Position numbers and translations under genes: made by a program
Shown: positions 32,727 through 64,000 of the stretch, piece by piece
Layout of the letters: the number at the start of each line of letters is the position of its first letter
How positions within the stretch are numbered: the stretch's first letter is position 1
The notes under the pieces: model-generated
What the model saw: only the letters and a program-made list of their open reading frames with translations
Told to the model about the DNA's origin: nothing
Databases searched by the model: none
DNA from: Dipteris shenzhenensis
Taxonomy: Eukaryota
Assembly (NCBI GenBank): GCA_047967505.1
Contig: CM106538.1
Length of the DNA: 64,000 nucleotides
Direction: 5' to 3' (one strand)

Positions 32727-35369
32727 TCAAAACCTTGTAAGGTCCATAATACCTATCAGCAATTTAACATTGGTATTACCTTTCAAAGAAGCATGCCTAG
32801 ACTTATGTAATCTGAGAAATACATAATTCCCTTCTTCAAAATGAAGATCTCTCCTATGCTCGTCAGCATAATCCTTCATCCTTGCTTGGGCCCTTACCAT
32901 ATTATCTTTACATTGCTGTAATAGAGCAGTCATGTGAGCCAAATCATCCTTGGCTTGCTGGCTTGTCAATGCTTGATCAATAATGGTTGATGGAACATGA
33001 GCTTTACAGCCAAACATGGCTTCAAAAGCGCTCATACCAATTGAAGTATGCTTGGTGGTATTATAACAAAATTCAGCTAGATGCAACCATTGATCCCACG
33101 ATGCTTGGGTCTCAAAGCAAAAATGCCTTAGATACTCTTCCAACCAGCGGTTAACCTTCTCTGTTTGCCCATCAGTTTGAAGGTGATCTGCTGTACTTGG
33201 GGTAAGAAGTGTTCCCATGGAACTGAAAAGCTCTTGCCAAAAATGCCCCATGAACTTAGCATCACGATCACTCATAATCTCTTGAGGAAGTCCATGTAAT
33301 TTAAACACATTCTCCATGAATTGCTTAGCCACCTTGGAAGCTGTAAATTGGGTCTTAGTAGGAATGAAGTGGGCAGCTTTAGTAAGTCTATCAACAACCA
33401 CAAAGATACTGTTCCAACCCTTAGAGGTCACTAGTAGACCTGTAATAAAGTCCATGCTGATATGTGTCCATTTACCTTGAGGTATAGGTAGAGGTTGTAG
33501 TAGACCAGCTGGCCTCAAATTCAACTCCCTGTTTTGTTGGCAGGGCTTACAGCTTTGAACATAAGCAAGAACATCCTTCCAAAGCCCCTTCCAGTAAAAA
33601 CTCTGTTTTACCTTATCATACGTCTTGTTGAGGCCTATATGCCCAGCCATAGGAGATGAGTGAAATTCCTGCAAGATTGGCAGCTCATAGGAGGAATTTT
33701 CAGTAAGAAATATTCTATCATTATACCACAAGAGCCCATTGTGCAACTTGAAATTGGAATATTGCTGACAGTCAGGATCTTGCAAGTCTTGGAACATAGC
33801 AGCTGCTTGAGGATCATTGAGATACTCTTCTTGAATGCCATGGATCCAATCTTTATAAACCTCAGTATTAGATGATAAAGTACAAGCCCATATCCTAGAA
33901 AGAGAATCTGCCACAATGTTTTCTTTGCCCATCTTGTAATCTATGTCAAAGTCATAGTTTTGCACAATGGATAGCCATCTCCTTTGCTTGGGTGATAGAG
34001 AAGACTGAGATAGAAAATATCTGAGAGTCTTATGATCAATCTTGACCTTGAAATGGCTGCCATAAATGTAGTGGTGCCACTTTTTGATTGCATGAAGTAT
34101 TGCCAATATCTCTTGGTCATAAATGTGGAAACTTGACTCTTTGTCATCCAATTTCCGACTTTCAAAGGCAATAACTCCATGACTCTGCTTTAGGACAGCT
34201 CCAATGCCCCTTCCACTAGCATCAGCCTCAATTATAAAAGGTTGAGAGAAATCAGGACATACCAAGATAGGCGCTGAAGTAAATGCCTCCTTTAATGCTT
34301 CAAAGCTCTTATTGGCACTGTCAGACCATTGGAAAGCATTCTTTTTTAGAAGCTCAGTGAGAGGAGCTGCCAATTTGGCAAAATGCCTTATAAACCTTCT
34401 ATAAAATGATGCTAGACCAAGGAATCTCAGCTGAGTGATATTCTCAGGTATAGGCCAATCCTTTACACACTTTACCTTGCTGGGATCCACCTTAATGCCA
34501 CTACTGCTGACAATATGGCCCAAATATTCCACTTCTTCAGCCATGAAAGTGCATTTACTTGATTTGGCATACAACTGGTGTGTCCTCAATACTTCCAATA
34601 CTTGTTGGACATGCAATAAATGCTCTTCTTTCATTTTGTTGTAGATCAATATATCATCAAAGAATACCAACACAAATTTATAGAGGAAAGGCTGCAATAC
34701 CTTGTTCATTAGGGCCTGGAAAGTTGCAGGTGCATTGGTTAGGCCAAATGCCATCACTTTGAATTGATAAAGCCCACGTTCTGCCCTGAAGGCAGTTTTA
34801 TGTTCATCTCCCTCCTTCATCCTTATTTGATGATAGCCTGACCTTAAGTCAATCTTTGTGAAGTACTTTGCCCCTCTAAGCTCATCCAGTAGATCATCAA
34901 TTCTAGGGATAGGAAACCTATTCTTAACTGTCATTTTGTTCAAATCCCTGTTATCAATACACATTCTAAATGAGCCATCCTTCTTCTTAACCAATAACAC
35001 AGGAGAGGCAAAGGGTGACTGACTGTGTGTAATAAATTCCTTGTCAAGGAGTTCCTTTATTTGCCTTGCCACCTCTTCCCTTTCAGCTCTAGAAAGTCTA
35101 TATGGAGCTTTGTTGATTGACTTAGATCCTAGCTTCAACACAATTGCATGATCCACATCTCTCATGGGAGGGAGATGGTTGGAAAGATCAGCAAATACAT
35201 CAAAGTATTGCTGTAATAGGGACTGCATGTCTGTATCCTCCACCAACAACCCATTACCCTCTTGAGACTTGGTCAACTGAATAGCATAGACTCCACAAAC
35301 ACTTTTCAGGTCTCTGGCCATTCTTCTTGCTGAAATTAAGGACAATTTAGAAGATTGGTGACCCATCAA
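32727..35369 (-). CDS. Gypsy pol (RT, RNase H, integrase), 880-aa open segment of a disrupted polyprotein
   Basis: FRMCIDNRDLN, IDLRSGYHQIR, MAFGLTNAPATF, FFDDILI; EADASGRGIGAVL; H..H..C..C integrase zinc finger; SMDFITGL, IMSDRD, QTDGQTE. Confidence 0.95.
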   Translation of the reverse strand: MMGHQSSKLSLISARRMARDLKSVCGVYAIQLTKSQEGNGLLVEDTDMQSLLQQYFDVFADLSNHLPPMRDVDHAIVLKLGSKSINKAPYRLSRAEREEVARQIKELLDKEFITHSQSPFASPVLLVKKKDGSFRMCIDNRDLNKMTVKNRFPIPRIDDLLDELRGAKYFTKIDLRSGYHQIRMKEGDEHKTAFRAERGLYQFKVMAFGLTNAPATFQALMNKVLQPFLYKFVLVFFDDILIYNKMKEEHLLHVQQVLEVLRTHQLYAKSSKCTFMAEEVEYLGHIVSSSGIKVDPSKVKCVKDWPIPENITQLRFLGLASFYRRFIRHFAKLAAPLTELLKKNAFQWSDSANKSFEALKEAFTSAPILVCPDFSQPFIIEADASGRGIGAVLKQSHGVIAFESRKLDDKESSFHIYDQEILAILHAIKKWHHYIYGSHFKVKIDHKTLRYFLSQSSLSPKQRRWLSIVQNYDFDIDYKMGKENIVADSLSRIWACTLSSNTEVYKDWIHGIQEEYLNDPQAAAMFQDLQDPDCQQYSNFKLHNGLLWYNDRIFLTENSSYELPILQEFHSSPMAGHIGLNKTYDKVKQSFYWKGLWKDVLAYVQSCKPCQQNRELNLRPAGLLQPLPIPQGKWTHISMDFITGLLVTSKGWNSIFVVVDRLTKAAHFIPTKTQFTASKVAKQFMENVFKLHGLPQEIMSDRDAKFMGHFWQELFSSMGTLLTPSTADHLQTDGQTEKVNRWLEEYLRHFCFETQASWDQWLHLAEFCYNTTKHTSIGMSAFEAMFGCKAHVPSTIIDQALTSQQAKDDLAHMTALLQQCKDNMVRAQARMKDYADEHRRDLHFEEGNYVFLRLHKSRHASLKGNTNVKLLIGIMDLTRF

Positions 35370-37800
35370 AGTGATGTGACAATTTAGAAGATTGGTGACC
35401 CATCAAAGTGATGTGCTTACCTTCATGCATAAACTTCATATACAGTCTGTTAAGGTCCATAGAGAATTCTCCCGAGGTTCTCAACCATTCACAACCAAGG
35501 ACAATGTCAATAGGTCCCATTTCCAAGATAAATAGATCTCCATGAAAAGTATAGTCTTGAGAAAGTTGCACTTGAGCACCCTGACAATATTGCTTACTGT
35601 GGGAATGTTGACCATTAGCCACCTCAACTTTGATCCCATGATCCAAAGTGGATGGGCATAACCTCACTGTTTGAAGTGTCTTTGCATTAATGAAGTTATG
35701 AGTGCTCCCACTGTCAACCAAAATGTGGACTGGTCTGTTATTGATTGATTCCTTTTAACCTAAGGGTTTGAGAGCCCTTGCAGCGTGTATCCCAATACAC
35801 TTCATCATCATCAACAACATCATTTCCATTAGAATTTCGAATCTCATCCTCATAATCTTCAACAACTTCAATGTTCCATTATCTAGATCTATTTGAGCAC
35901 CTTGGTAAACTATCATCCATAAACATGGTGTCAAACATGGATAACCCACCTAGATCAAAGGGAAAGGTGGTCCCCCCTTTGGAACTATGATCCTCATCAT
36001 CATCAAGGCCTTCATTCACACAGTCCTGCTATTCATGAAATTCAGATTCTGCTACAAAAGTATTAGGAGATAAATCCTCATCAATCTCTAGAATCAAGCT
36101 CAACTTTGCTCCTGTTTTTGCTTTGCACACATTCCTATGTTCAGGGGTCCACTTCTCACCACGAAGGAAGCACAAATTCTTCTTCTTCCTGTCATCAATA
36201 ATTGCTTGAGATAACTGCTTAACCAACTTGTTTCTTTTATCACTCAGATCATCCTTTGGAGTGGGTTTAAAGGATGACTTTACATCTGTAGCCTTGTAAG
36301 CCTTAGGTTGTCCCATGCCACTGCCATACAGTGTGGGGAACCTAGAAATAGAAGAAGTTGTAGCAGGTGCAAGAAGTTTGCTTTCATCATTGGAAACCCC
36401 TTTGACCATAAGTTTAGTCCCAAAGTGATCAATACCCAAAGTCTTCTCCTTCCCATTGAAATAGAGGAAGTTGTAGCAGGTGCAAGAAGTTTGCTTTCAT
36501 CATTGGAAACCCCTTTGACCATAAGTTTAGTTCCAAAGTGACCAATACCCAAAGTCTTCTCCTTCCCATTGTATTTGGGTTCATTAAGCTCTGCCAACTA
36601 CATGGCCTCTTTAAGAGAATTGGGCTTTTGAGCTGCAACATCTGAAGCAATACTAGGGTGCAGACCATGGATGAACTTGAGCATTCTAACTCTTTCATCA
36701 ATACCATGAATAAACAGAGCCAATTTTCAAAACTGTTTGATATAAATTTTCACTAATCCTTGCTGAGTAAGATCATACCACTTACAAATATATTGATCCC
36801 TAGTAAAAGGAGATATAAAAGTTTTAAGCATTTCAACCTTGAATTCATCCCAAGCATTAAAAGTTAACCCTTCTCGCTGTAGATGCCTCCACCAAGAGTG
36901 GGCATAATCTTCCAGATGAAGAACAACAAATCTAATTTTACCTTGATCATCCTTTGGATATAGAAGGAAGTAGTCATCCATCTTACTGAGCCATTCCTCC
37001 AATTCCTCAGGAGAGGTAGAATCACCTTTGAATTTAGGAAGTATAATCTTGTCTTTCATATCTTTGTCTTGATGAACAGGTCCTTTTGGTTCAATAGATT
37101 TAATTGTTTGTATATATTGCTCGAATGTCATTGCTGCCCTAAGGTCTGCTGATAGCAACTTATATTCAGGGAATTTTTTACACAACTCTTCAGCTGCTAA
37201 ACAGTTATTATTAGGAGTCTTACCATGTGCTGAATCCTTATCCATATGAGTTGTAACTCCACTAGAGTGATAGGTCCTTCGGGCAAAAGCCATAAAACCA
37301 ACCGGTTCAGTTACATGTATAGGATGATCATCATCATCATCTGAACCTGAGTCTCCATCAATTTGGGAATCCACAGGTCTCTTCCCATCACAAATTTGGC
37401 TTCTCTTGAACTGATCAAACCTTTTATTAAAAGTGGCAGACATGTTCTGCATCCTTTGGTCAATGCTCTGATTATTGGTCTTAATCTCATTAGTTAACTC
37501 CTTGAATATCTGTAGCATTGGGTCCATACAACTCTTTATGATCTGCTCTTGGTGAAGGGATGCTTGTACTTGAGGAGTTGCTGCTAAATCCCCTTGAACA
37601 TTGTCAACATGAGGATCATTGGGCTCAAAAGCTACAGCCTGATCATCAACTGGTTCCTTTTCTGAGATGGAATCAAAGATACCCATTGGTTGCTTACTAG
37701 CTTGACCAGTAGACCTCTTGACAGGCATCTTTAATGACTTGAATCTAGAGTAAATGGACTGTCTTAAGCCCTGATCAAAAACCACTACCAAAAGCCCCAA
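35347..37800 (-). pseudogene. Gypsy gag and protease, frameshifted
   Basis: Gag LPKFKGD..EWLSKMDDYF..LEDYAHSWW..WDEFK (36727-37800); LCFLRGEKWTPEHRNVC knuckle relic; protease LVDSGSTHNFI (~35690-35722). Confidence 0.9.
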
Positions 37801-38576
37801 ATGCTAGTTTTGCCCTAATTTCGCAGGTCAACTTTCAAAGAGAAAACTTGAAATTTCCCACTTGATTAGGCGATCCTTATGCCAAGACTGAACCAAAAAG
37901 CCAATCAGGAGTAGAAATTTATAACATTACACCTGGATTGCAAGAAATTGCTAGATCTTTTGGCAAATATCAACCCTGCACTAACTGTTGCAACTGAATT
38001 TCGAATTGCTCATTAACAAAAGTCCAAATCAATATCACTTAATCAGTTGCATCCATGGAGCTAGGCGACCATATGCACTACAGCTGACCCAAAATGGAGC
38101 TGTACATCAGAAATTCGCAGCAGTTCCTCCATGCCAACCAGTCGAGAATTGCTCATAACTCCCCCAAACCATCTCGGATCACCACCAGACTTAGGGAGCA
38201 GCCTCAAGAGATTGAGGCGAACAGATCAAGCCAAGAATGACTTAGTTTGGTGCAGGAAAACAGCAGATCGTCACTTTCTTCAGTTTCTTGCACCAGAGAG
38301 AAAACCACTTCAATGTTGACTCAATCCTCCACCATTTTAGGATTCCCACACATAGAAATGATCAGGGAAGCAAGGGCTTTCCACTGATGCAAGAAGCCCC
38401 AAATTCTGAGCACTTTGAAAATCAGGGTTTCTCAGAGCCTGCCATGTGGCAGCTCACAACAGAAAGTACTTCTGGCGCTGAATTTTTGCAGAGAGGTAGG
38501 CCCCAGGCTCAAGAGTAGATGCTCCAAATTTCAAAGTGATTGGACAAAGAATTTCCCACAAATTCCCACGAAAAGT

Positions 38577-39973: not shown

Positions 39974-40615
39974 TTAAGCTGCAGTGGGGGCTTTCTCCAT
40001 GATCACAGTACTACCTTCCATTTCTTGGTTTCCAACCATAAGCACATCATGGAATTCCTCCTCCTCCTCAGGGAGTTTCTCCAAAGATCCAGGTCCATCA
40101 CCATCCTTTTCATCCTCAGGATATCGCACCACCACTACAGGACAATCACAATGATGAACGCAATAGTCACTAACACTTCCCAGGCGAGCTTTATGGGTTT
40201 TTTTAGAAGCTCCAAACCCTCTACTTCCCATTATAACAGCGTTGACACCGAGCCTCTCCACCTCAAGACAGATTCGTTCCTTCATGTCATGATCCTTGAC
40301 AATATGGATCTTATACGGAATTCGAGCATCCAAGATTGGCTTAGCAAGGTCAGCTGCCTTGTTCGAAGTTAAAGTATCAAAATTATCCTCAAGTTTTCGG
40401 TGTGACTCTTCCTCACTTGAGTCAATTGATTGATCCATGGCTCCCCAGTCGGCCCCATAGAGAACACTCGTAGGTTGCACATGAAGTAAAATCACAGAAT
40501 CATTTGGACGAAGGTAATTGGCAACGGCCCAACGCACAGCATAGGCACTCTCATCACTGAGGTCCACTGCAATGGCTATCTTTCGGTTCCCACTTTGCAT
40601 AGATGAAAGTGACAT
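39974..40615 (-). CDS. Universal stress protein A-like (PHOS32/PHOS34-like), 213 aa, single-exon CDS
   Basis: RKIAIAVDLSDESAYAVRWAVANYLRP, SVLYGADWG, KIHIVKDHDMKERICLEVERLG, IMGSRGFGA..LGSVSDYCVHHCDCPVVVVR; uninterrupted; in-frame TAA just upstream of the ATG; probable 5' UTR intron acceptor at 40628-40629. Confidence 0.96.
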   Translation of the reverse strand: MSLSSMQSGNRKIAIAVDLSDESAYAVRWAVANYLRPNDSVILLHVQPTSVLYGADWGAMDQSIDSSEEESHRKLEDNFDTLTSNKAADLAKPILDARIPYKIHIVKDHDMKERICLEVERLGVNAVIMGSRGFGASKKTHKARLGSVSDYCVHHCDCPVVVVRYPEDEKDGDGPGSLEKLPEEEEEFHDVLMVGNQEMEGSTVIMEKAPTAA

Positions 40616-41547
40616 GCTGAGTTAAACCTGCAGCGATTGTTCAATAGGCACTCAATGAAAAAGAACTGTGAGGGAATTGTCAACATGCGGATTAACCGGA
40701 AACAAAAGCTCTAACAGGATCGAACAGTCAGGTAGCATAACTATACTTGACTTTGCGAAGTTACCTGAAACAAAAACTCAGCACATGCTCAAATAAAAAT
40801 AAAACAAGCAGGAAAGAAACAAAATCGGAATGACAGCGCTTACTAGATATCTACTTCTCAGATATTGCTAGAGCATCTTTTGTATCTTAAGTCTTCTAGG
40901 TCTACTTCTACCTACGGCGAACCAGCCAGGACGCTGCAGTCCTTAAGTACATAAACGAATCGCCATACACAACTCAGTAGGGATAGCTGCATTCCAGTGA
41001 GTAAAAGGGGACAGAGAGGAGAAGGGAAGATGGTGAAAGGGAGACGTGGGTGAAGAAGGTAAAGGGTAGAAGAAGGGCAATAGGACAAAGGACAGCGGTA
41101 AGGAAAGAAAAGAAAGCAAAAGGAAGAAGAAAGCGCAGATGGGTACCTGGGGGGGATGGTATGTTGAAGTTGGAGAGGTCCTTGGAAGAAGAAGGTAGGC
41201 GATGGGAAAGCTGTACAGGAGAGTGAAAAGGGAGGAGGGCGATGTGGGCGATGTCACAGCGAAAGCGTATATTAGAGAGAGAGACCCAAAACAAGTGGGT
41301 GCATCCACAGCTAAATGCTCCTAGCATTTTGTGCCCACCCCCCCAAATATGGAAACCCCAAACCCCCCGCCCCCCCCCCCCAATACCCACTTCTCTAGTT
41401 GGGAAATTTGACTTTTTTGTGCCCACTCGCTCTCCATCCCAACTTTTGCCCCAAGTTGGGTTGCCAATCTCATGGGCACTACACGCACAAGCTCCTAGTC
41501 ATGCATGAGCATGTTTGCACCAATGTGTCAATGCATCCATGCAAAGA

Positions 41548-52978: not shown

Positions 52979-55900
52979 TTCCTTCCCTCTTCAAGCATCA
53001 ATGTCCTCGACGATGAAGTCTAGGAACACTCTCTGTAACTGGTATACGAATTCCCAGGTAGCTTCTGATACAGGTAGACCATGCCATGCAACCAACACCA
53101 TAGGTATCTTCCGATTGCACACTTGCATTGTTCCTCGGTCAGGATTCCTATTGGTTTTCGTCTTGCATTATCCTCTATCTCCTGAAACAAAACAACACCC
53201 TTGATTAATGAGTCACCTGTATGCAAAAATTTCTTTAAACGAGAAACATGAGACACTAGGTGCACCTTACAACCCTGTGGCAATTCTAATTTATAGGCTA
53301 CCTTGCCTATTCTTTTTAGAATTAACCATGGCCCACAATATCGAGGTGATAACTTAGCACACTCTCCTGCAGTCAAAGACAGAGTGCGAAGGAACTATGA
53401 GAAAAACTTTTTCTCCTTCCTTAAATTCTCTAGCGGATCGGTTTTCATCCGCATACGCCTTAGCTCTATCCATAGCTTGGCGGATGCTAGCTCTCGCAAG
53501 TGCTAGCATCTACCGCATCTGAACCACAAAGTTCGCGGCACTAGGCACTTTCTGAGGTATTCCAACTATAGTTGGATTCGCTGGCCTATAACCATAGTTC
53601 AGCTCAAATGGACTGAACCCTGTAGAGGAATGTTTTCTATCATTGTAGGCAAACTCTAATAATGGCAACCACTTGTCCCATGTATGTTGCCTCAATGACA
53701 CACATGCTCTAAGCATATCCTCTAAAATTTGGTTGATTCTTTCCGTCTGACCATCCGTTTCTAGATGATTCCCACTATTCATTCCCAACTCAATCCTTAG
53801 TGTCTCAAATACTGCAGTCCAAAAATGACCGGTAAATTTGACATCTCTGTTTGACACTATGGATTTGGGTAATCCATGCAAACGAAATATATGTCTAATA
53901 AACAAATCTGCCACTTGCAGGGCACTAACAGACTCTCTAGTTGGAACTGGATGAACTCGTCCATCTTTTGAGTTTCTCTAATCTCGATCATTAGAGCACT
54001 CTCTAACATCGTGAAACTCATGTTATGCATAATGCGTGACAACACATCAGCAACTTTATTATCCTTCCCTCTTCGGTACCGAATTGTCAAATTAAACTCC
54101 TGCATGAGTTCTGCCCACCTAGCTTGGCAGCCTCTCAAGTTAGGTTGTTTACAAAAATGTTTCAGAGTATCATGATCAACATCCACATAAAATTCTGATC
54201 CATACAAATAATGTCTCCATGTTTTCAAAGCATGGACAACAGCATACAACTCTAATTCATGAGTTGGCCAATTTCCTTGAGAGGGAGAAAGCTTCTTGCT
54301 TTCAAAGGCTACTAGCCTTCCCTCTTGGTGGAGAACTGCTCCTACCGCAATGCCACTTGCATCAGTTTCAAGGAAAAACAGTTTCTGGGGATCAACTATT
54401 TTTAACACCGGTTCTGAGACCACAGCTTATTTTATGGTGTGAAAACTTTCCTGTTGATTCTGTCCCCATATAAAAGGTGCTTTATCTGAGGTCAGATCAG
54501 TCAATGGCGATATTATTTCGGAATATCCTTTGATATGCCTTCGATAAAATTGGACAAATCCCAAGAATGATCGCAAAAAGCGGTCAGACTCTGAGGGATT
54601 GGCCAAGTCAGTATCTTAGCCACTTTCTTTGGATCCATTTCTACCCCCTCAGGAGTAATTATGAATCCTAAATACTCAAGTCTTACCATACACAGTATAG
54701 TCTTCTTTTTATTTACATAAAGATTGGCTTTCCTCAAAGTATTGAACACTATTCTTAAGTGTTCATGATGCTCAATAATACTTTTACTGAATACCAGAAT
54801 ATCATCAATAAAGTGTACTACAAACTTTTCGATATACGGACGTAGTAAATCGTTCATAAGCATGACGAATGTAGCTAGAGCATTGGTAAGTCCAAAGGGC
54901 ATTACCAAAAACTCATAATGTCCAAACCTGCTTCCAAAAGCGGTTTTATGCACATCCTCGGCTCTAATACGGATCTGATGGTAGCCACACTTAAGATCTA
55001 TCTTACTGGAAATTACGGCCCCATGTAATGCATCTAGCAAATCATCGATCCAAGCCATCGGATACCTGTGCTTAATAGTGATATTATTCAATGCTCTGTA
55101 ATCTAGACAGAGACGAAAAGTATCATCTTTCTTCTTCTTTAATATCAATGGCAAAGCAAAAGGTGAAAAACTTGGTTGAATCTACCCCAACTTGAGGTAT
55201 TCTTCCAGTTGTCTTTGCACCTCCGCCTCTTCAGTAAAACTCAACCTATAGGGAGGTCTACTTACAGGTTCTGCCCCCGAGATTAGTTCAATCTTATGCT
55301 GAACATTCCGCTCTGGAGGTAACCCATAAGGTAGCTCATCCCTAAAACAATCAGAGAACTCCTCTGTTATTTAATCAGCCAGCTTGGCCATCTCTCCATT
55401 TTGGGCAACATCAGTGCTGGCCGAAGAATCATCAATCGGCTCTACCGATGCTGTACAAAGAAACAAAAACTCTTCTTGAGCTTTTCGAATTTCCATCACG
55501 GAAACCAACGGTTCTTGAGGTATATCCTTTTCACCTCATAAGACATACATCACATCATTCATCTTGAATTGATAAATGTGCTTTTTCCAATCTATGGCTG
55601 GATTCTTCCTAGAATGCCAAGCCTTACCCAGGGCTATGTTTGCATGAGCAAGCTTAGTCATTTCAAAATCAAGCTTCTCAGCATAGTCCTGAATTCAAAG
55701 CTCCAACTGGGTAACCCTTTGGTCCCATACTTCAGTTGAACTTCCGTCTGCCATCCTGACTGTATATGCATAGTCAGATGGGCTAGTCTTTAGTTTCAGC
55801 CTCTTTACGAGCTTGGAGTTAATTACATTGTGCGTTGACGCTGAGTAAAACAACACAATGACTTGATGATTAGCTTCTTGCCCTTTCATCTTAATTAACT

Positions 55901-58327
55901 CTGTATCATTAAAGGCTGTATACCCCGTTGCTGTGGGCTTTGACAAGATATTATCAAGTGCACTAGTTACTAACTTAGCAACAGACACACATAACAAAAA
56001 AGGTACTGACCTTTGAGAAGATCTCGCTAGCTGAATCTGCATCTGTTCTGCTCTGGGACTTCCCTCCATTTCCACATTGCATTTTGAGACCATCATCTCA
56101 GCCATCCAACGATCTTTGTTTCGTGGACAATCTTTCCATTGATGAGGCTGAAGGCAACCAAAACACAAGCCTTCTCTCCTCGCTTTTTCCCTTTGCTCTG
56201 GGTTCAAAGAGGACTTCGACCAAGCCCGGGCTACCATTGGTGTTACTTTTCTTTTCATTCCAATGGTGGTACTTGATTTAGGAGTCTCAACTGGTTTTGC
56301 CTGCTTGGCTTGACCACTAGGCTGTGAGGCACTCCCTTTGCTAATCCACTTCTTCTTAAACCCAGTTTTCTTCAGGTACCCATACTGAGTCCCAACCTGC
56401 ACAAACCCCCTTGGTCTATTCCCTTTTGCATCCTCATAGTTCAGGGCTATGGCAATCGCTTCATCTAGCGTGTTCGCATACTTAGCCCGAACTTCCATCT
56501 TTATCCGATCATTCAATCCAAAGATAAAATCTTTTACTTGGATTGACTGAGGTAGGGGTTCATCAACCTTCATTACACTTTCTCTAAACTTATCAGTGTA
56601 TTCTGCCACTGATAAATTTCTTTGACGAAGGTTTTGATACTGGTCCCAAGCTCGGGATGCTTCGTCAAGAGGTAGGAAGTGTTTTCTAAATTCCTTTTAA
56701 AACCCCTCCCAAGTAATGGATGCTACTCCATCTTTCTGTTGTTTTATCCACCACCTATCCGCTGCCTCATTAAACATATGGGTGGCCTCGCGGATTTTCT
56801 TCATATCATTCCTGATTTCACAAATGGCGAATGCCTCGTCCCATTTGTGTAACTAGGTCTCTATGATATCGGAACTACTGTCAAACATCCGACCAGAATA
56901 CTTTTCTGGCCTATAATTGGCAATATTAGGCACCTTAGCCCTCCTAGGCTCGACCATACGAACACTCCGGTTCCATCGAAGATTACCTTTCTCCTCACGA
57001 GATGGTTTGGCAGACATACTATGCACCATTTTCCTGAGCTCAGACTGCCCTACATTTGTTTGTAACTGCTGCACTAAAATCTATTACAAGGCATCCTCTA
57101 ACATTGCAATTCTACCAGATAGTGTATGACCTGTTGGACGCGACACCTGCGGGGTCGGCCGGACTCGCGACTCTACGGGACCCATCCTAGAAGCTTCTTC
57201 TTCTACTTCCATTTAGGTCAATGGGTGTGTGTGTGTGTGTGTGTGTTTTTAAAAATAAAAATAAAACACTGCTTGCAACTGTAATTACAAATCGAAAGTT
57301 CAACTTCCAACTTTACAACAAACCAAGCATATATCACACTATAACCAAAACCACTTTTCATTGTACTAGGGAAACTCCTACAATCCGAAATAACTTAAAC
57401 ACGGAGGCAATTAAATAAGTATATGCTCCCACAAAACTTAGAAGGCATAGAAAGCTCCCTGGTTATATCTTTGCTGCATGAAGAGATTAACTAGTCCCCG
57501 TAAGCCACTCCAACATGCATTTATGACCTGCCTTGTAATCACAAACATGCTGTACGGTCATAACGTCAGACCCTTGCAAAGTAACTGACCCACGACCTCT
57601 GTTACGCACCAACCTTTGGTGTTAACCAAAGCTCCGCCAACTGGTCAAGACTTGCAAATTCCACGATGCTACGTTTTTTTTTTCACATACAACGAGACGC
57701 TCATCTATGAGTTACCAGCATCGAAAACGTTAAAGGATCTCCTCTTAATGCAGATGTCTAGATCAGTTTCCCTATCCCTAAAATAGTTGCAGGTTGACGA
57801 ATGGAATCACAATAAAATTAATTACGAAACTAGTCTATACTCCTAGGCTCCTGAAGTCCCGTCTTGACAGCAAGTCCCTCCCCGCGATATCACGGAGTCC
57901 TGAATGTAACCACCCGAAATCCTTTGCGTGATACCAAAGTATGAACCTACGGCTGTATGCGATCCACTATCACACAATAGCTCTTTGTAGGTAGTCGTAA
58001 CTCCAGTAACCTCCTCACACGATGTCAAGGAACACCAAACTGTAACCAGCATTGCGATGACGTCCGTGGACACACAGTACCTTTGGTCATGCACTGCTCA
58101 TCAGCGCTGCTCCTAATCACGTAACATAAATCTGAAAAGCCAGAGTTCCAACTCCTGCGACAACCTCCCTTAACAAACGACTTTGCAAGCATCAACGTTG
58201 ACGAACTACAGGGTGTCCCCACCAAACGACACAGATAATCTGTCAGGATTCAACACAATCCATCCACACCGCCAATCGACCAGCTTACATCCACGCCTAC
58301 CCAAGACCTTCTCGTGATCCACCTGCA

Positions 58328-59095: not shown

Positions 59096-60829
59096 GGGTT
59101 TTGAGTATTGTCATGTCTTTATGGCCACTAGTTGTTCTCCCTTCAAGGCACATTGTCCTTTAAGCGAAAGTTTGGGGGGATTAAAGGCCATTTTGCCTTA
59201 ACCTCGGTTATATACAAAATATTCAACATATATATATAAATGACATGGAAGATAAGGGTGTGTTCCTCTCTGGCTCTTACTCTCTCTTGTTTTCACTTTC
59301 GTTGTGAACTCACCCCCAGTTATGTACACAATACTCAACATCTATATATGAATGACATAGAAGCTAAGGGTGGTTTAGCACCCACAAATCTAAGTGTTCC
59401 TCTCTGGCTCTCACTCTCTCTTGTTTTTGCTTCTGTTGTGAACTCACAAAAATGTCCACTAACTCTTAAGTTCCCTTGGCGGGGCAAGCTATTAAAAATA
59501 ATGCACTTCAAATTACATAGCCTTGGCTTTTCCCTTGATTAACGTCCTGCAAAATGATCAAAAATACGAGTGGAACTTAAAGTAGGAGCAAGCCTTTATA
59601 GAAATGCCAATGAAAATGCTTAAAAGAGCACCCATCTTCATCCCCCAACTACAATCTAGAGTTCTACATTGTCTTCATCCCCCAACTATGATCGAGAGTT
59701 CTACATTGTCTTAGCCATAGGGGCTTGAAGGATGGCATGCTACCTTTCTTAGCTCATGAGATAAGTTGCACCGTCATTTGTAACAATTGAACCTTGCTTA
59801 TAAAAAGACCTTATATACCCATGCAACACCTAATTCTAGCAAGAATATTTGTTGCCCACATGAAGGTAAAATCTTTGTTGGGAATGAGGCACTTCACCTC
59901 ATGCTCAAGAAACTTATGGGACAATTATTACAATAGTAGGGGAGGGAAAGAAGAGTAGACGAGTGAAGAGAGGAAAGCAAAGATATTAATGATTGCCATA
60001 AGGAGGGGGATGAGAGGAATGCAAAGACTAGTGAGGGTGCAATTGGAAGACTGTAATCACCTCCCATTTATTTTTTTATTATGTTGTTCTTACAATGTTT
60101 TTTTTGTTTTTGTTTTTGAAACAATGTTATGAAGCATAGCAAGGAGAAATTCACGTGATCTTTTTGCTAAATTGGCATCACCAAAGTGCCTTCTTAACCT
60201 AGCCGAGACCTAGCCACTCCATCTCTTTCAACCTATGAAACTAATTGGAGGCTACTCTTCCCTCTCCTTCCCTCCTATTTCTTTACTCCCTTATTCATAC
60301 AAGTTTATGTAGCCTAGTGGTAAAATTTCTTCTATGAGTATTGGTAAGGTTTTGAAGTAGCCCCTTCTGGTGAATCAATACAATCGGAAGCCTTTCCTAC
60401 TCTGCGACTTTCCACATATAGAACCAATTGCAATCCTCACACCAAAATCAAATACCTCTTGTTAAGATAATTAAGGAAGATAAATTAAGTTGATGGAATC
60501 AAGGGCCCTTAGAATGCGTTAATGGGGATGTAGGTGAGTAAAGTAACGTTGAATCATGGGAAGGCTTTAGGAGCAAAGTAATAACTTCATATGTGGAATG
60601 ACTTTTCATATTAAAATCAACACAATTGAAGTAAAACAGTTGTTTGAACCTACATTGCCGCAATTCATTCATCATATTATTTTTTTGCAAATCTCATATG
60701 GAAATCTATGACCAAAGTTCCCGCAGAAAATGCCTCCTACACCCCTATGTGTCTAGCAATACACCTTTCGTCATACACATTATCCACTCTAACTTATGAG
60801 CTCCACAAATATGGCTCCCAATCTCTTTG

Positions 60830-61052
60830 CTAATACCACTCTTCTCCTATGTGTTGATTTCCTTCACTTACATGTGTCGCAATTGTATCATTTTGGGAGA
60901 GTATATGTTTGAACCATAGGGCTGATAATCTAGCGTATCGATCAAGATTTTCATCAACATAATATATGCCAAATCTCGTCTCCAATCCTAGCGTTGTCTC
61001 AAATCCATCAACGAGAGACCACACAAACATGCCTCGTACATTTGCTCCATCT
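60830..61052 (-). CDS. GH1 beta-glucosidase-like gene, last exon
   Basis: AG acceptor 61053-61054; DGANVRGMFVWSLVDGFETTLGLETRFGIYYVDENLDRYARLSALWFKHIL..EEWY*. Confidence 0.9.
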
Positions 61053-61322
61053 CTGCATCCACATCGATAGCCATTGTATAATGTGGGGAAGAGATTAAAC
61101 CTATCATTTCAAGCTTTGAAGTAAATTGGCATGTTCTCATATCAACAAGTGTACATCATATTTCATCTTTTTAAAAGTGAACATTTCTACGTATACACAA
61201 ATGTACTCTTGAACACTTTTCTATCTTCTTTTTTTTAATGTATGACCTTTTCAAGCCTTAACCTGATATAGACCTAACAAATATTCTATTTTGAAATCTT
61301 TTCACATAAATGAAAGACATAC

Positions 61323-61410
61323 CGTATCCCTTTGATCAACGATTTTAAATATGTTGAATAAAACTCCACTCGATCAACATCATCCAAAGAGGTGTTTGAC
61401 ATGCCCCAAC
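61323..61410 (-). CDS. GH1 beta-glucosidase-like gene, penultimate exon (88 nt)
   Basis: AG/GT bounded; (G)WGMSNTSLDDVDRVEFYSTYLKSLIKGI(R); phases match both neighbours. Confidence 0.88.
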
Positions 61411-61515
61411 CTATGCCATAATATGAATATCATTACCATACTATTTTTTAAGAGTACAAGACAAACTCACTACTAATTGATGTTTTAAGAAAAATAAAAG
61501 GACATGAAACCTTAC

Positions 61516-61612
61516 CAAGTGCCGTTATGTAGGTTGGGAAGTTGTCATAATGAGTCCTCATGTAGCCTACAATTTTTTCCATGCACCATGGTACAGAATA
61601 TTCGCCATCATT
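61516..61612 (-). CDS. GH1 beta-glucosidase-like gene, nucleophile-region exon (97 nt)
   Basis: AG/GT bounded; NDGEYSVPWCMEKIVGYMRTHYDNFPTYITAL(G). Confidence 0.88.
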
Positions 61613-61714
61613 CTGCATGGTGACAACAAATTATGTAATAACTCTCCTTTTAAAAGAAAGTGAATAGATTTTTTTGAAAGCAAAAAAGGACAAAGGTATT
61701 ATTAGTAGCAATAC

Positions 61715-61743
61715 CTTGCCAATGACCACTCCGTCTTTATATG
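61715..61743 (-). CDS. GH1 beta-glucosidase-like gene, short exon (29 nt); upstream exons not seen in the window
   Basis: AG/GT bounded; YKDGVVIGK corresponds to the short ..NG.PIG. exon of plant GH1 genes. Confidence 0.75.
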
Positions 61744-62159
61744 CTGAAACGATAGTTTCAAAAAGTGCTTAGAAAACAAGGTGAAGGGAATGGGAAGAAG
61801 AAATAGAATTCGTTTCAATGTTTATTAAAGTTTGAGAGGGTTGGATTATGAGAGATAAAACGCAAACACCCTAAACTTTCTTATGAAAAAGCTATTAACC
61901 AAGTTTTGAAAGGGTGGAAAAAATTGCTTCTCATTTTCAAATGGGAAGAAGACAGATCACTCATTCTACCGTTTATCAAAAGTTTGAGACCAAAACTTCT
62001 TATGAAAATTTCTATTAACCAAGTTTTCAAAGGGTAGAAAGAATTGCCTAAATTCTTTTCATTTCATAATGCTAATCGGAGAAAAGAAAAGAAAATGCAT
62101 TTCAAATGTTCGGAGAAAACGTAATGAACCTTCATTTTTCACCTCTAAAAAATATTTTA

Positions 62160-64000
62160 GGGGTGCATCAGGGTGAGACTTCAGCAAGACGAAGCAGAAA
62201 GCCTTTGCCTCGGTGGTGAAGAGGTGGAACGTGGAGGTCATCCTCCTACAAGAGATCAAGACAGGTTCTGATAATAATCCTTGGATGGCTCTAAATTTAC
62301 TGGAATTTTCCTCCTTAATCAACTGCCTATCCAGAGGCAGGGGCGGGGTCGCCATTCTGTATCGACCCTTGGTCGCGTGTACTGAGATCGGTCGTTATGA
62401 TATGGGGTCCTTGTTAGCTGTGGAAGTCTCTTACAAGGGGTTCGTCTTCAAGATAGCAAATATCTAGGCTCCGAATGTCTGCACTGAGAGGGGAGAGTTG
62501 TGGAATCTGATGGGAGAAAAGCTATTAGGGGAGAGGTGGTTGTTGGGGGGGGACTGGAACATGGTGGATCGCCCAAAAGATAGATCGGTGCAGTCGAGTG
62601 GGATCCTAGGAGGTGAGGCGGAAGACTGGGATTCCTTGGTGCTAAACAAAGGCCTGGTGGATTGCAGGGAGTTAGATCCGGATGCTCTCTTCGGGTTCAC
62701 TTGGTATAACAAGAGGAAAGGAGAGGAGCTCTGTGCCGGTAGACTCGACAGGTTCTATGTCTCCAAGGAGACCTGCGTGCGCATGCAGGTCTTTCCGATC
62801 ACATCCCTACGTGCCCTTTAAGCTGGACAAACGGCAACTGGCCTATGATCGATTCTGTGTGGAGGTGAGTAGAACCTGGAAGTCCGCCACTAAGGGGTCC
62901 CAGGACCCTATGCTCAAGTGGGATATGGCCATCAAGGCTGTGATGCAGGTGGCTAAAGAGTGTGATAAGCAGAAAAGAAGGTGGGTACATACCATGTCTA
63001 GGCAGGTAAGCAGGTAAGTGCGTGTTGGGAAAGCTTGAAGAGAGCAGTTGACGAAAGCCCGACAGACTCGTACCTGGCTACATTGATGTTCGAGGCTGAA
63101 GAGGTCCTAAGAAAGGTCAAGCTGGAGAAGGCAGAAAAGGCCAGACTTCAAAGTAGGCTGACCTAGTTACAGCATTATGACTGCCCCTCCAAAGTCTTCC
63201 TCCAGGCAGTTAAGAAAAAGCAGACCAGGGAAAGCATCGACAGAGTCGTGGACAAAGAAAGCAACCTTGTCACTGAATATTGGCACATCGCTCAAGTATT
63301 CCTTCAAGAGCTGTCTAGTATAGTGGGGGAACAGGCCATCTCGGTCCAGTCCTGGCAGCATAGGTCCCAAGAGTTCCTAAGCCAAGTGAACTCTTAGCTG
63401 TCGGGGGCCGACAAGGCTAGTTTAAGCAGACCGTTCTCTGTGGAGGAGCTTAAGGAAGCTTTGGACTACCTCGAAAACGAGAAGGCACCTGGCCCAGATG
63501 GCTTGCCAACTCAATTTTTTCAGGCCTTCTGGGAAGTAATTAAATTGGATTATACAGCCATGGTTCAGCAGGCTGTTCGCTGTGGCTCCCTCTCCATTGG
63601 GCTTAGTAAAGCTCTTTCCCAAAAAGCATTCCAAGCTCCGAGCAGGTGATTGGCGCCCCATCACCCTACTGAACACGTCCTATAAGATCCTGGCTAAGGC
63701 CATCACCCTCAGAATAAGGGACTTGTGCTCAAGAGTGGTAGACAAGGAGCAGAACGGGTTCATTAAGGGGAGAGACATTTTCAAGAACATCTTGACTGTC
63801 ACCACAGCTTTAGACTGCGCACAACAGACGGGGAAGAAGACCTTGCTCCTTGGCTTCAATTTTGACAAGGCGTATAACCGTGAGAGGTGGGACTTTATGC
63901 TCTGTGTCCTGAGAAAGCTTGGGTTCGGGACAGTGTTCTGTGGTTTTGTGCAGACACTGTTTGGCAATGCATCTGCTGTGATGCGTTTGAATGGAGGAGC
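62160..64000 (+). mobile_element. L1-like LINE ORF2 (APE endonuclease + RT), degenerate, runs off the window
   Basis: ILLQEIK, GRGGVAIL, WLLGGDWN, FTW..RLDRFYV; KAPGPDGLPTQFFQAFW, WRPITLLNTSYKILAKAI, EQNGFIKGR, FDKAY; stops and deletions. Confidence 0.93.

Follow-up and report, generated by a model that had tools for sequence, protein, structure and literature searches.

Proteins of glycoside hydrolase family 1 (GH1) are among the best understood of all enzymes, and the two catalytic glutamates of the family are treated as defining. The animal Klotho proteins and the pseudo-domains of lactase-phlorizin hydrolase (LPH) have the GH1 fold, lack a catalytic Glu, and act by binding. An excerpt of one publication lists seven conserved GH1 residues, numbered as in rice Os3BGlu6 (Q31, H132, N177, E178, E394, E451, and W452), and reports that the fern GH1 proteins most similar to Os3BGlu6 keep all seven (PMC8571087); ferns therefore possess ordinary GH1 as well. 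Here we describe the 3' end of a GH1 gene on the minus strand of a 64,000-nt stretch of the Dipteris shenzhenensis genome (contig CM106538.1 of assembly GCA_047967505.1; the whole stretch is referred to as the window), in which the codon for the catalytic nucleophile specifies Ala. We are confident that the window contains the four 3'-most exons of a fern gene that is transcribed, spliced correctly, and maintained by selection, and that codes for a GH1-fold protein of a clade, here termed clade A, with Ala in the nucleophile position. In the wider fern lineage the pocket has been rebuilt, the acid/base Glu is found in every member, the nucleophile has been lost at least two times, and the genes are still expressed and conserved.

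The last 145 residues of the protein are encoded by four exons in a single open frame, with AG acceptor and GT donor borders on all four and a stop codon at 60832-60830. The parts of the gene are as follows.

61744-64000, minus strand: beginning of a long intron, with the next upstream exon past the end of the window; all contigs exit at 61744.
61743-61715, minus strand: exon e1', 29 nt, encoding (A)YKDGVVIGK; from contigs and splice sites.
61613-61714, minus strand: intron, 102 nt, GT..AG, spliced out in contigs of all four sequencing runs described below.
61612-61516, minus strand: exon e2', 97 nt, ending in YITALG; from sequence, splice sites, and contigs.
61411-61515, minus strand: intron, 105 nt, GT..AG, spliced out in contigs of all four runs.
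61410-61323, minus strand: exon e3', 88 nt, encoding (G)WGMSNTSLDDVDRVEFYSTYLKSLIKGI(R); from contig joints in all four runs.
61053-61322, minus strand: intron, 270 nt, GT..AG, spliced out in contigs of all four runs.
61052-60830, minus strand: final coding exon of 223 nt, the stop codon TAG (60830-60832) included; from Pfam, tblastn, and contigs.
60829-60723, minus strand: 3' untranslated region, to the extent reached by contigs; one contig of run X2 continues to 60663.

The first 2 nt of exon e1' finish a codon that is opened in an upstream exon beyond the window. Exon e2' (61612-61516, minus strand) translates to NDGEYSVPWCMEKIVGYMRTHYDNFPTYITALG; its nucleophile motif is YITALG, in which the nucleophile codon is GCA (Ala) at 61522-61520 and a Leu stands in place of the Asn of the canonical ENG. 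The last exon reads WSLVDGFETT, for which the canonical sequence is WSLLDNFEW. The GH1 profile PF00232 matched the open reading frame (ORF) of the last exon with 56.2 bits (cut-off 22.6, E 2.6e-15), and the three shorter exon pieces, each searched singly against Pfam, gave no match. On the basis of tblastn searches with three full-length relatives, the window covers only the residues from ∼384 to the C-terminus; these searches gave no match in 61770-64000 and none below residue 384 anywhere in the window.

Parts of this gene were found in four public sequencing runs (X1-X4), which come from three studies and carry three organism labels, and their contigs were mapped to 60300-62160. Removal of all three introns (CT..AC on the plus strand) was seen in contigs of every run, with joints leading from 61408/61410 to 61514/61516 and from 61052 to 61323; bins of intron or flank were counted as uncovered only where one contig bridges them. 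Because the contigs bridge the introns and none includes intron sequence, their source is taken to be spliced RNA, and a retrocopy in DNA runs was considered and rejected. The contigs of all four runs cover 61715-61744 and then leave the window with an identical loose end; its minus-strand translation, ...YFQDWSAKLT, matches the GYFQDWSVKLT that directly precedes TAYKDG in a full-length relative, P0002, and the mRNA thus runs on into an upstream exon beyond the window. One contig of X1 is 2029 nt long (depth 123) and shows no difference over the 545 nt, exons plus 3' untranslated region, that it has in common with the window. Those 545 nt are its positions 1485-2029, and the remaining 1484 nt upstream leave room for about 390 missing residues; X4 contains a 2008-nt contig. 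At 61520-61522 all four runs read GCA with no alternative letter, and over 61514-61612, the region of exon e2', no differing letter was present in X1, X2, X3 record 6, or X4. X1 possibly derives from the sample used for the assembly itself, X2 comes from another study, and X3 and X4 bear other organism labels, so that the last three are independent. The initial annotation of this region, made from the sequence alone, had described four in-frame exons with canonical borders and no stops, only the 3' part of the gene being visible, and a YITALG motif with Ala (GCA at 61520-61522) and Leu for Asn. All of this was confirmed: the codon is GCA and not GAA in each run, spliced contigs were recovered from three studies, and the transcript continues upstream in a 2029-nt contig.

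When the last-exon ORF was used as query, three full-length relatives were among the 26 candidates, all with YI[TS]ALG; no identical protein was present among the 26, so the protein of the window organism itself is absent from that collection. The closest relatives were the same seven clusters (P0001-P0007) whether the search was made with P0002 or with a profile of the clade alignment. They comprise KP509_12G089500 and KP509_12G089100 of Ceratopteris richardii, GOP47_0002669 of Adiantum capillus-veneris, L7F22_013394 of Adiantum nelumboides, and three unnamed sequences. Members of clade A have 61-71% identity to P0002 and a length of 511-538 residues, and they align with rice Os3BGlu6 as one GH1 domain; PF00232 was found in all of the full-length relatives. 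Ala occupies the nucleophile position in six of the seven and Gln in one, with Leu as the next residue. Two of the seven, P0004 (KP509_12G089500, with Ala) and P0006 (KP509_12G089100, with Gln), have neighboring locus numbers on a single 198-Mb record and form a natural pair for comparing the two nucleophile states.

To compare pocket residues, we aligned the window fragment with 105 matches of 400-620 residues (15 of 120 were dropped as fused or fragmentary), comprising 32 fern-type and 73 ordinary plant GH1 sequences. The states at the signature positions and two further pocket positions were as follows.

Q31: Gln in 73/73 ordinary GH1; Lys in all 27 fern-type sequences covered.
H132: His in 73/73 ordinary GH1; never His in fern-type (Glu 9, Ala 9, Thr 12, Ser 2).
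N177: Asn in 72/73 ordinary GH1; Asp 30 and Glu 2 in fern-type.
E178, acid/base: Glu in 73/73 ordinary GH1; Glu in 32/32 fern-type.
Tyr of NHY: Tyr in 73/73 ordinary GH1; lost in 32/32 fern-type.
E394, nucleophile: Glu in 73/73 ordinary GH1; Glu 10, Gln 16, and Ala 6 in fern-type.
N449: Asn in 63/73 ordinary GH1; Gly in 31/31 fern-type.
E451: Glu in 72/73 ordinary GH1; Glu in 31/31 fern-type.
W452: Trp in 63/73 ordinary GH1; never Trp in fern-type.

At the seven signature residues clade A thus reads Lys, Glu, Asp/Glu, Glu, Ala (Gln in one), Glu, and Thr, keeping two of seven, namely E178 and E451 (7/7 each). The acid/base motif of the seven relatives, in a part of the gene that lies outside the window, is TF[DE]EGND; its Glu is kept, and the preceding residue is Asp in five and Glu in two. 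The window copy covers five positions, E394, N395, N449, E451, and W452, and has Ala, Leu, Gly, Glu, and Thr in them. Across the whole fern superclade the Q31 motif is an invariant Lys-His-Glu. The Glu-to-Ala and Asn-to-Leu replacements of the initial annotation were borne out but do not represent the full extent of the change: clade A differs at five of the seven signature residues, and its remodeled pocket is common to the larger fern superclade.

Sequences of this type were also sought more widely. A profile search of a representative library (1.84 billion proteins at 50% clustering) returned a list whose top 150 is filled by multi-domain proteins, and P0021, P0126, and P0198 were the only fern-type entries among the matches listed, probably because the superclade collapses into few clusters. 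Beyond the fern clusters, those same matches included none with the motif type of the clade; the only exceptions are animal LPH/Klotho-like pseudo-domains, whose motifs differ. The animal-type multi-domain representatives show TIDDP, YVTQNG, and DGFDW-like motifs; in the solved chain 8in1_A (PDB) and in P0132, P0196, and P0206, all two-domain animal-type GH1 proteins, the first domain has TIDD or TFED for TxNEP and Gln or Lys as the nucleophile residue. Judged by these motifs, the first domains of the 8in1_A type seem to represent independent pseudo-domains, in which some of the replacements are similar (DGF[DE]W). A search of the ESM Atlas returned generic plant GH1 clusters only, and the open-access papers searched contained no account of a fern GH1 clade without the nucleophile. 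In the databases these proteins are named "hypothetical protein" or "Beta-glucosidase"; the latter label is very probably wrong for at least one clade A member, GOP47_0002669 of Adiantum, and for several proteins of the sister clades.

The window copy bears several signs of purifying selection. Its 145 residues span 53 columns in which the seven relatives are invariant, and it matches 52 of them; in the remaining one, the Pro of R[HY]P[RK]L, it has Ala. When each relative was left out in turn, the relatives themselves missed one to four invariant columns. Over the coding part, the sequence of organism C differs from the window by four synonymous changes and one non-synonymous change, and that of organism B by two and one, respectively. 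An expressed paralogue from organism B (X3 record 5) differs in 11 codons by synonymous changes only and in eight by non-synonymous ones, of which seven are in the last exon, mostly conservative, and one is in exon e2'. The DGFETT motif of the paralogue is kept, its Glu, Thr, and Thr codons each being altered only synonymously. From this comparison the ratio of non-synonymous to synonymous rates (dN/dS) is ∼0.2, an estimate from a rough site count and not a model fit. X3 record 5 was mapped on 60904-61055 and 61514-61577. Its last exon shows 22 differences over 152 nt, and the position of exon e3' is occupied in it by 83 letters too diverged for alignment. The terminal branches of clade A (0.15-0.28) are similar to those of ordinary GH1. 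The initial annotation had proposed a gene that is maintained rather than randomly decaying; the presence of Ala in the relatives, which do not all keep Glu, and the signs of purifying selection agree with that proposal.

A structural model was made with AlphaFold2 for the relative P0002 (87-row alignment) and not for the partial product of the window. Its mean predicted local distance difference test (pLDDT) score was 89.1 and its predicted template modeling (pTM) score 0.87, with only the first ∼40 residues poorly predicted; judged by eye from the sequence, this N-terminus looks like a signal peptide or hydrophobic leader. The best solved match by Foldseek was rice BGlu1 (2rgl_A), with a TM score of 0.95 on the target, a root-mean-square deviation of 1.5 Å, and 43% identity, and the E386A, E386G, and E386S glycosynthase forms of the same rice enzyme were among the top matches. 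By phmmer, residues 47-513 of P0002 matched Os3BGlu6 (3gno) with an E value of 4.7e-128. In the model the (beta/alpha)8 barrel is intact, and the pocket is what has changed.

A quick tree built with IQ-TREE from 51 rows (the window fragment, 18 ordinary GH1, and 32 fern-type sequences) gave Shimodaira-Hasegawa-like approximate likelihood ratio test (SH-aLRT) values of 100 both for the fern superclade and for clade A including the window copy, which groups with P0001 and P0002 (SH-aLRT 94). The other subclades are defined by ITETG (11 rows, 10 with Glu), by ITQTG (12 rows), and by a small ITQ[IL]G pair. Parsimony required three losses of Glu and five changes among Glu, Gln, and Ala. The approximately unbiased (AU) test was applied to a reduced set of 31 rows under LG+G4, with groups named after inspection of the tree. 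A single clade of all rows lacking Glu was rejected (p 3e-46) because P0032, which has Gln, nests within the Glu-keeping clade; when P0032 was left free, the single clade was not rejected (p 0.115). The AU results therefore indicate at least two independent losses of the nucleophile. On this tree the change of Asn to Asp before the acid/base residue, which is common to all four subclades, is placed ahead of the repeated loss of the nucleophile.

With the nucleophile and most of the glycone contacts lost, the double-displacement (Koshland retaining) mechanism is impossible according to established GH1 enzymology. Judged by its residues, the predicted protein is excluded from classical two-carboxylate retaining hydrolysis and is not an ordinary beta-glucosidase. 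As to what it does instead, we tentatively favor a pseudo-glycosidase that would hold a ligand in the conserved, remodeled pocket without turnover, to which we assign somewhat less than an even chance. Such a protein, a (beta/alpha)8 barrel that is either secreted or vacuolar, would bind a glycoside or glycan, with lectin-like, sequestering, regulatory, or defense functions as candidate roles, and it may have arisen by duplication from the ITETG sister clade of ferns, in which both catalytic Glu residues are still present. Consistent with this, an active-looking sister clade (Glu in 10 of 11) stands beside Gln and Ala clades with the same pocket. Glu-to-Gln is the classical change that retains binding without turnover, and pseudoenzyme paralogues are common alongside active ones. 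If these are pseudoenzymes, they would correspond, in plants, to Klotho or the chitinase-like lectins and would form a new class of sugar-binding proteins in ferns. Several observations weigh on the other side, both of this assignment and of the gene model beneath it. All 32 fern-type sequences retain the acid/base Glu, always after Asp or Glu and always followed by an invariant Asn-Asp, and such strict retention fits kept chemistry, as a pure binding protein would be freer to lose the Glu. The type of the sequencing runs (RNA or DNA) was guessed, none of those listed being on record as RNA, with their RNA origin being deduced from the joints and the uncovered introns. That the ORF of the window copy is whole is suggested, for its 5' two thirds, by the length of the X1 contig only. 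The evidence for selection consists of short stretches and rough counts and not of a codon model, and the named members of clade A (Ceratopteris and Adiantum) come from a single fern family. That the window holds just the 3' third of the gene, with a degraded retroelement directly upstream, would fit a pseudogene in decay or cut short, or a mistake of sequencing or assembly in the Ala codon; this reading is nevertheless very improbable, given GCA in four of four runs from three studies, the splicing of every contig on to the upstream exon with contigs of 2029 and 2008 nt, the match to 52 of 53 clade-invariant columns, and the Ala common to six of seven relatives.

Retained but non-classical chemistry, all versions taken together, is possible but on the unlikely side. 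If these proteins are still enzymes, they would provide a natural case of a retaining glycosidase changing its mechanism, and scaffolds for transglycosylation without product hydrolysis. The most specific version, which we regard as unlikely, is a natural GH1 that switched to substrate-assisted catalysis on 2-acetamido sugars and would act as a beta-N-acetylhexosaminidase or transglycosidase. The Asp or Glu at N177 would polarize the N-acetyl group, which would attack C1 to give an oxazoline/oxazolinium and make the enzyme nucleophile unneeded, and removal of the nucleophile together with loss of the supporting Tyr would make room for the acetamido group. Andre-Miral et al. are said to have converted a Thermus GH1 in 2015 into a substrate-assisted N-acetylglucosaminidase by changing the Asn beside the acid/base residue to Asp and the nucleophile to Gly. 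The fern-type sequences have the corresponding features in the acid/base Glu (32/32), the preceding Asp (30) or Glu (2), and the lost NHY Tyr (32/32), and the Asn-to-Asp change is present in all four subclades, with the nucleophile lost later. In catalytic logic, though not in sequence, which is that of GH1, the Asp-Glu pair and the invariant Lys-His-Glu also resemble the residues used by GH20; an excerpt on GH20 describes consecutive Asp320-Glu321, as assisting residue and acid/base, plus a conserved active-site His, the enzyme itself supplying no nucleophile (PMC9016705). On the other side, a nucleophile Glu that would be expected to clash with the acetamido group is still present in the sister clade, whose pocket is the same; 16 of the 22 Glu-less sequences have Gln, which is not small; and the sugar contacts Q31, H132, and W452 are replaced too, so the ligand may not be a hexosamine. 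Moreover, switches of mechanism within a GH family are rarer than pseudoenzymes, and we know of no natural GH1 that uses such a mechanism. It is accordingly a doubtful proposition that the fern clade is the first natural GH1 to have traded its enzyme nucleophile for substrate-assisted catalysis on N-acetylhexosaminides with a GH20-like Asp/Glu-Glu pair where strand 4 ends. Were it true, the Glu, Gln, and Ala subclades would be successive stages of a mechanism switch surviving in living ferns, and the clade a natural version of what the Thermus enzyme reportedly is by design. Improbable in our estimation is a different chemistry that would use the acid/base Glu alone, with an exogenous nucleophile or cofactor (phosphate, ascorbate, or another anion) or a substrate group filling the space left by Ala. 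This would be the natural counterpart of chemical rescue or of a glycosynthase and would lead to a phosphorylase-like, inverting, or transfer reaction. Plant myrosinases, which are GH1 proteins without one catalytic Glu that use a cofactor instead, offer a precedent. The strictly kept acid/base Glu (32/32) and the rice BGlu1 E386A/G/S glycosynthases among the best structural matches of the P0002 model are compatible with it, and Ala, Gly, and Ser are the nucleophile replacements that an excerpt on working glycosynthases gives (PMC8819650). However, glycosynthases require an intact glycone pocket, whereas the pocket is rebuilt here; plants are not known to have the activated alpha-donors that they need; Gln, which leaves no cavity, is the residue of most Glu-less relatives; and no sequence feature indicates a particular cofactor.

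Other elements of the window are listed below.

62177-64000, plus strand: degraded retroelement of the long interspersed nuclear element (LINE) type, in the long upstream intron of the GH1 gene, from Pfam and the ORF list; its pieces, Exo_endo_phos (62177-62467, E 1.4e-06) and RVT_1 (63540-63998, E 1.2e-13), are broken by stops.
32727-37803, minus strand: Ty3/gypsy-type long terminal repeat (LTR) retrotransposon, with an open 891-residue reverse transcriptase-RNase H-integrase ORF (RVT_1 E 5.9e-40) and a gag ORF at 36727-37803.
53510-56696, minus strand: second, fragmented Ty3-like element, with gag/capsid, protease, reverse transcriptase, and RNase H pieces in separate ORFs.
39974-40621, minus strand: single ORF of 215 residues in which a universal stress protein (Usp) domain is complete (E 2.6e-29).

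The first Ty3/gypsy element may be young, because its pol ORF is uninterrupted, and the Usp ORF may represent a host gene without introns or else one large exon.

Set against the known systems, the fern proteins have in common with rice Os3BGlu6 (3gno) and BGlu1/Os3BGlu7 (2rgl) the fold at ∼42-45% identity, an N-terminal hydrophobic leader (by eye), a conserved Cys pair, the acid/base Glu, and Glu451. Clade A differs from the rice enzymes by Glu394 to Ala, Q31 to Lys, H132 to Glu, N177 to Asp or Glu, N449 to Gly, and W452 to Thr, and the Tyr of NHY is replaced by Val or Ile. The sister fern clades (ITETG; ITQTG and ITQ[IL]G) have the Lys-His-Glu, Asp-Glu-x-Asn-Asp, and Asp-Gly-Phe-Glu motifs in common with clade A, which is set apart from them by Ala instead of Glu or Gln, by Glu instead of Ala, Thr, or Ser at H132, by Gly after the acid/base Glu, and by Thr at W452. 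The engineered glycosynthase rice BGlu1 E386A (3scp), which is in the top ten structural matches, has the identical Glu-to-Ala change in the same fold. Glycosynthases keep the whole glycone pocket and need synthetic alpha-glycosyl fluorides, whereas the fern change is natural and conserved and is accompanied by replacement of four further residues of the sugar (-1) pocket; if a glycosynthase-like protein is taken to be one with Ala, Gly, or Ser as nucleophile residue and an intact glycone pocket, clade A falls outside on account of its pocket. The engineered GH1 of Thermus thermophilus reportedly has a similar residue pair, but it is an artificial, bacterial enzyme whose pocket is otherwise as it was. 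Klotho chains were among the sequence matches to P0002, yet they are not close to the fern clade. Proteins of the Klotho type are tandem and membrane-anchored with other replacements, whereas clade A proteins have a single domain; the loss of one catalytic Glu is what the two have in common.

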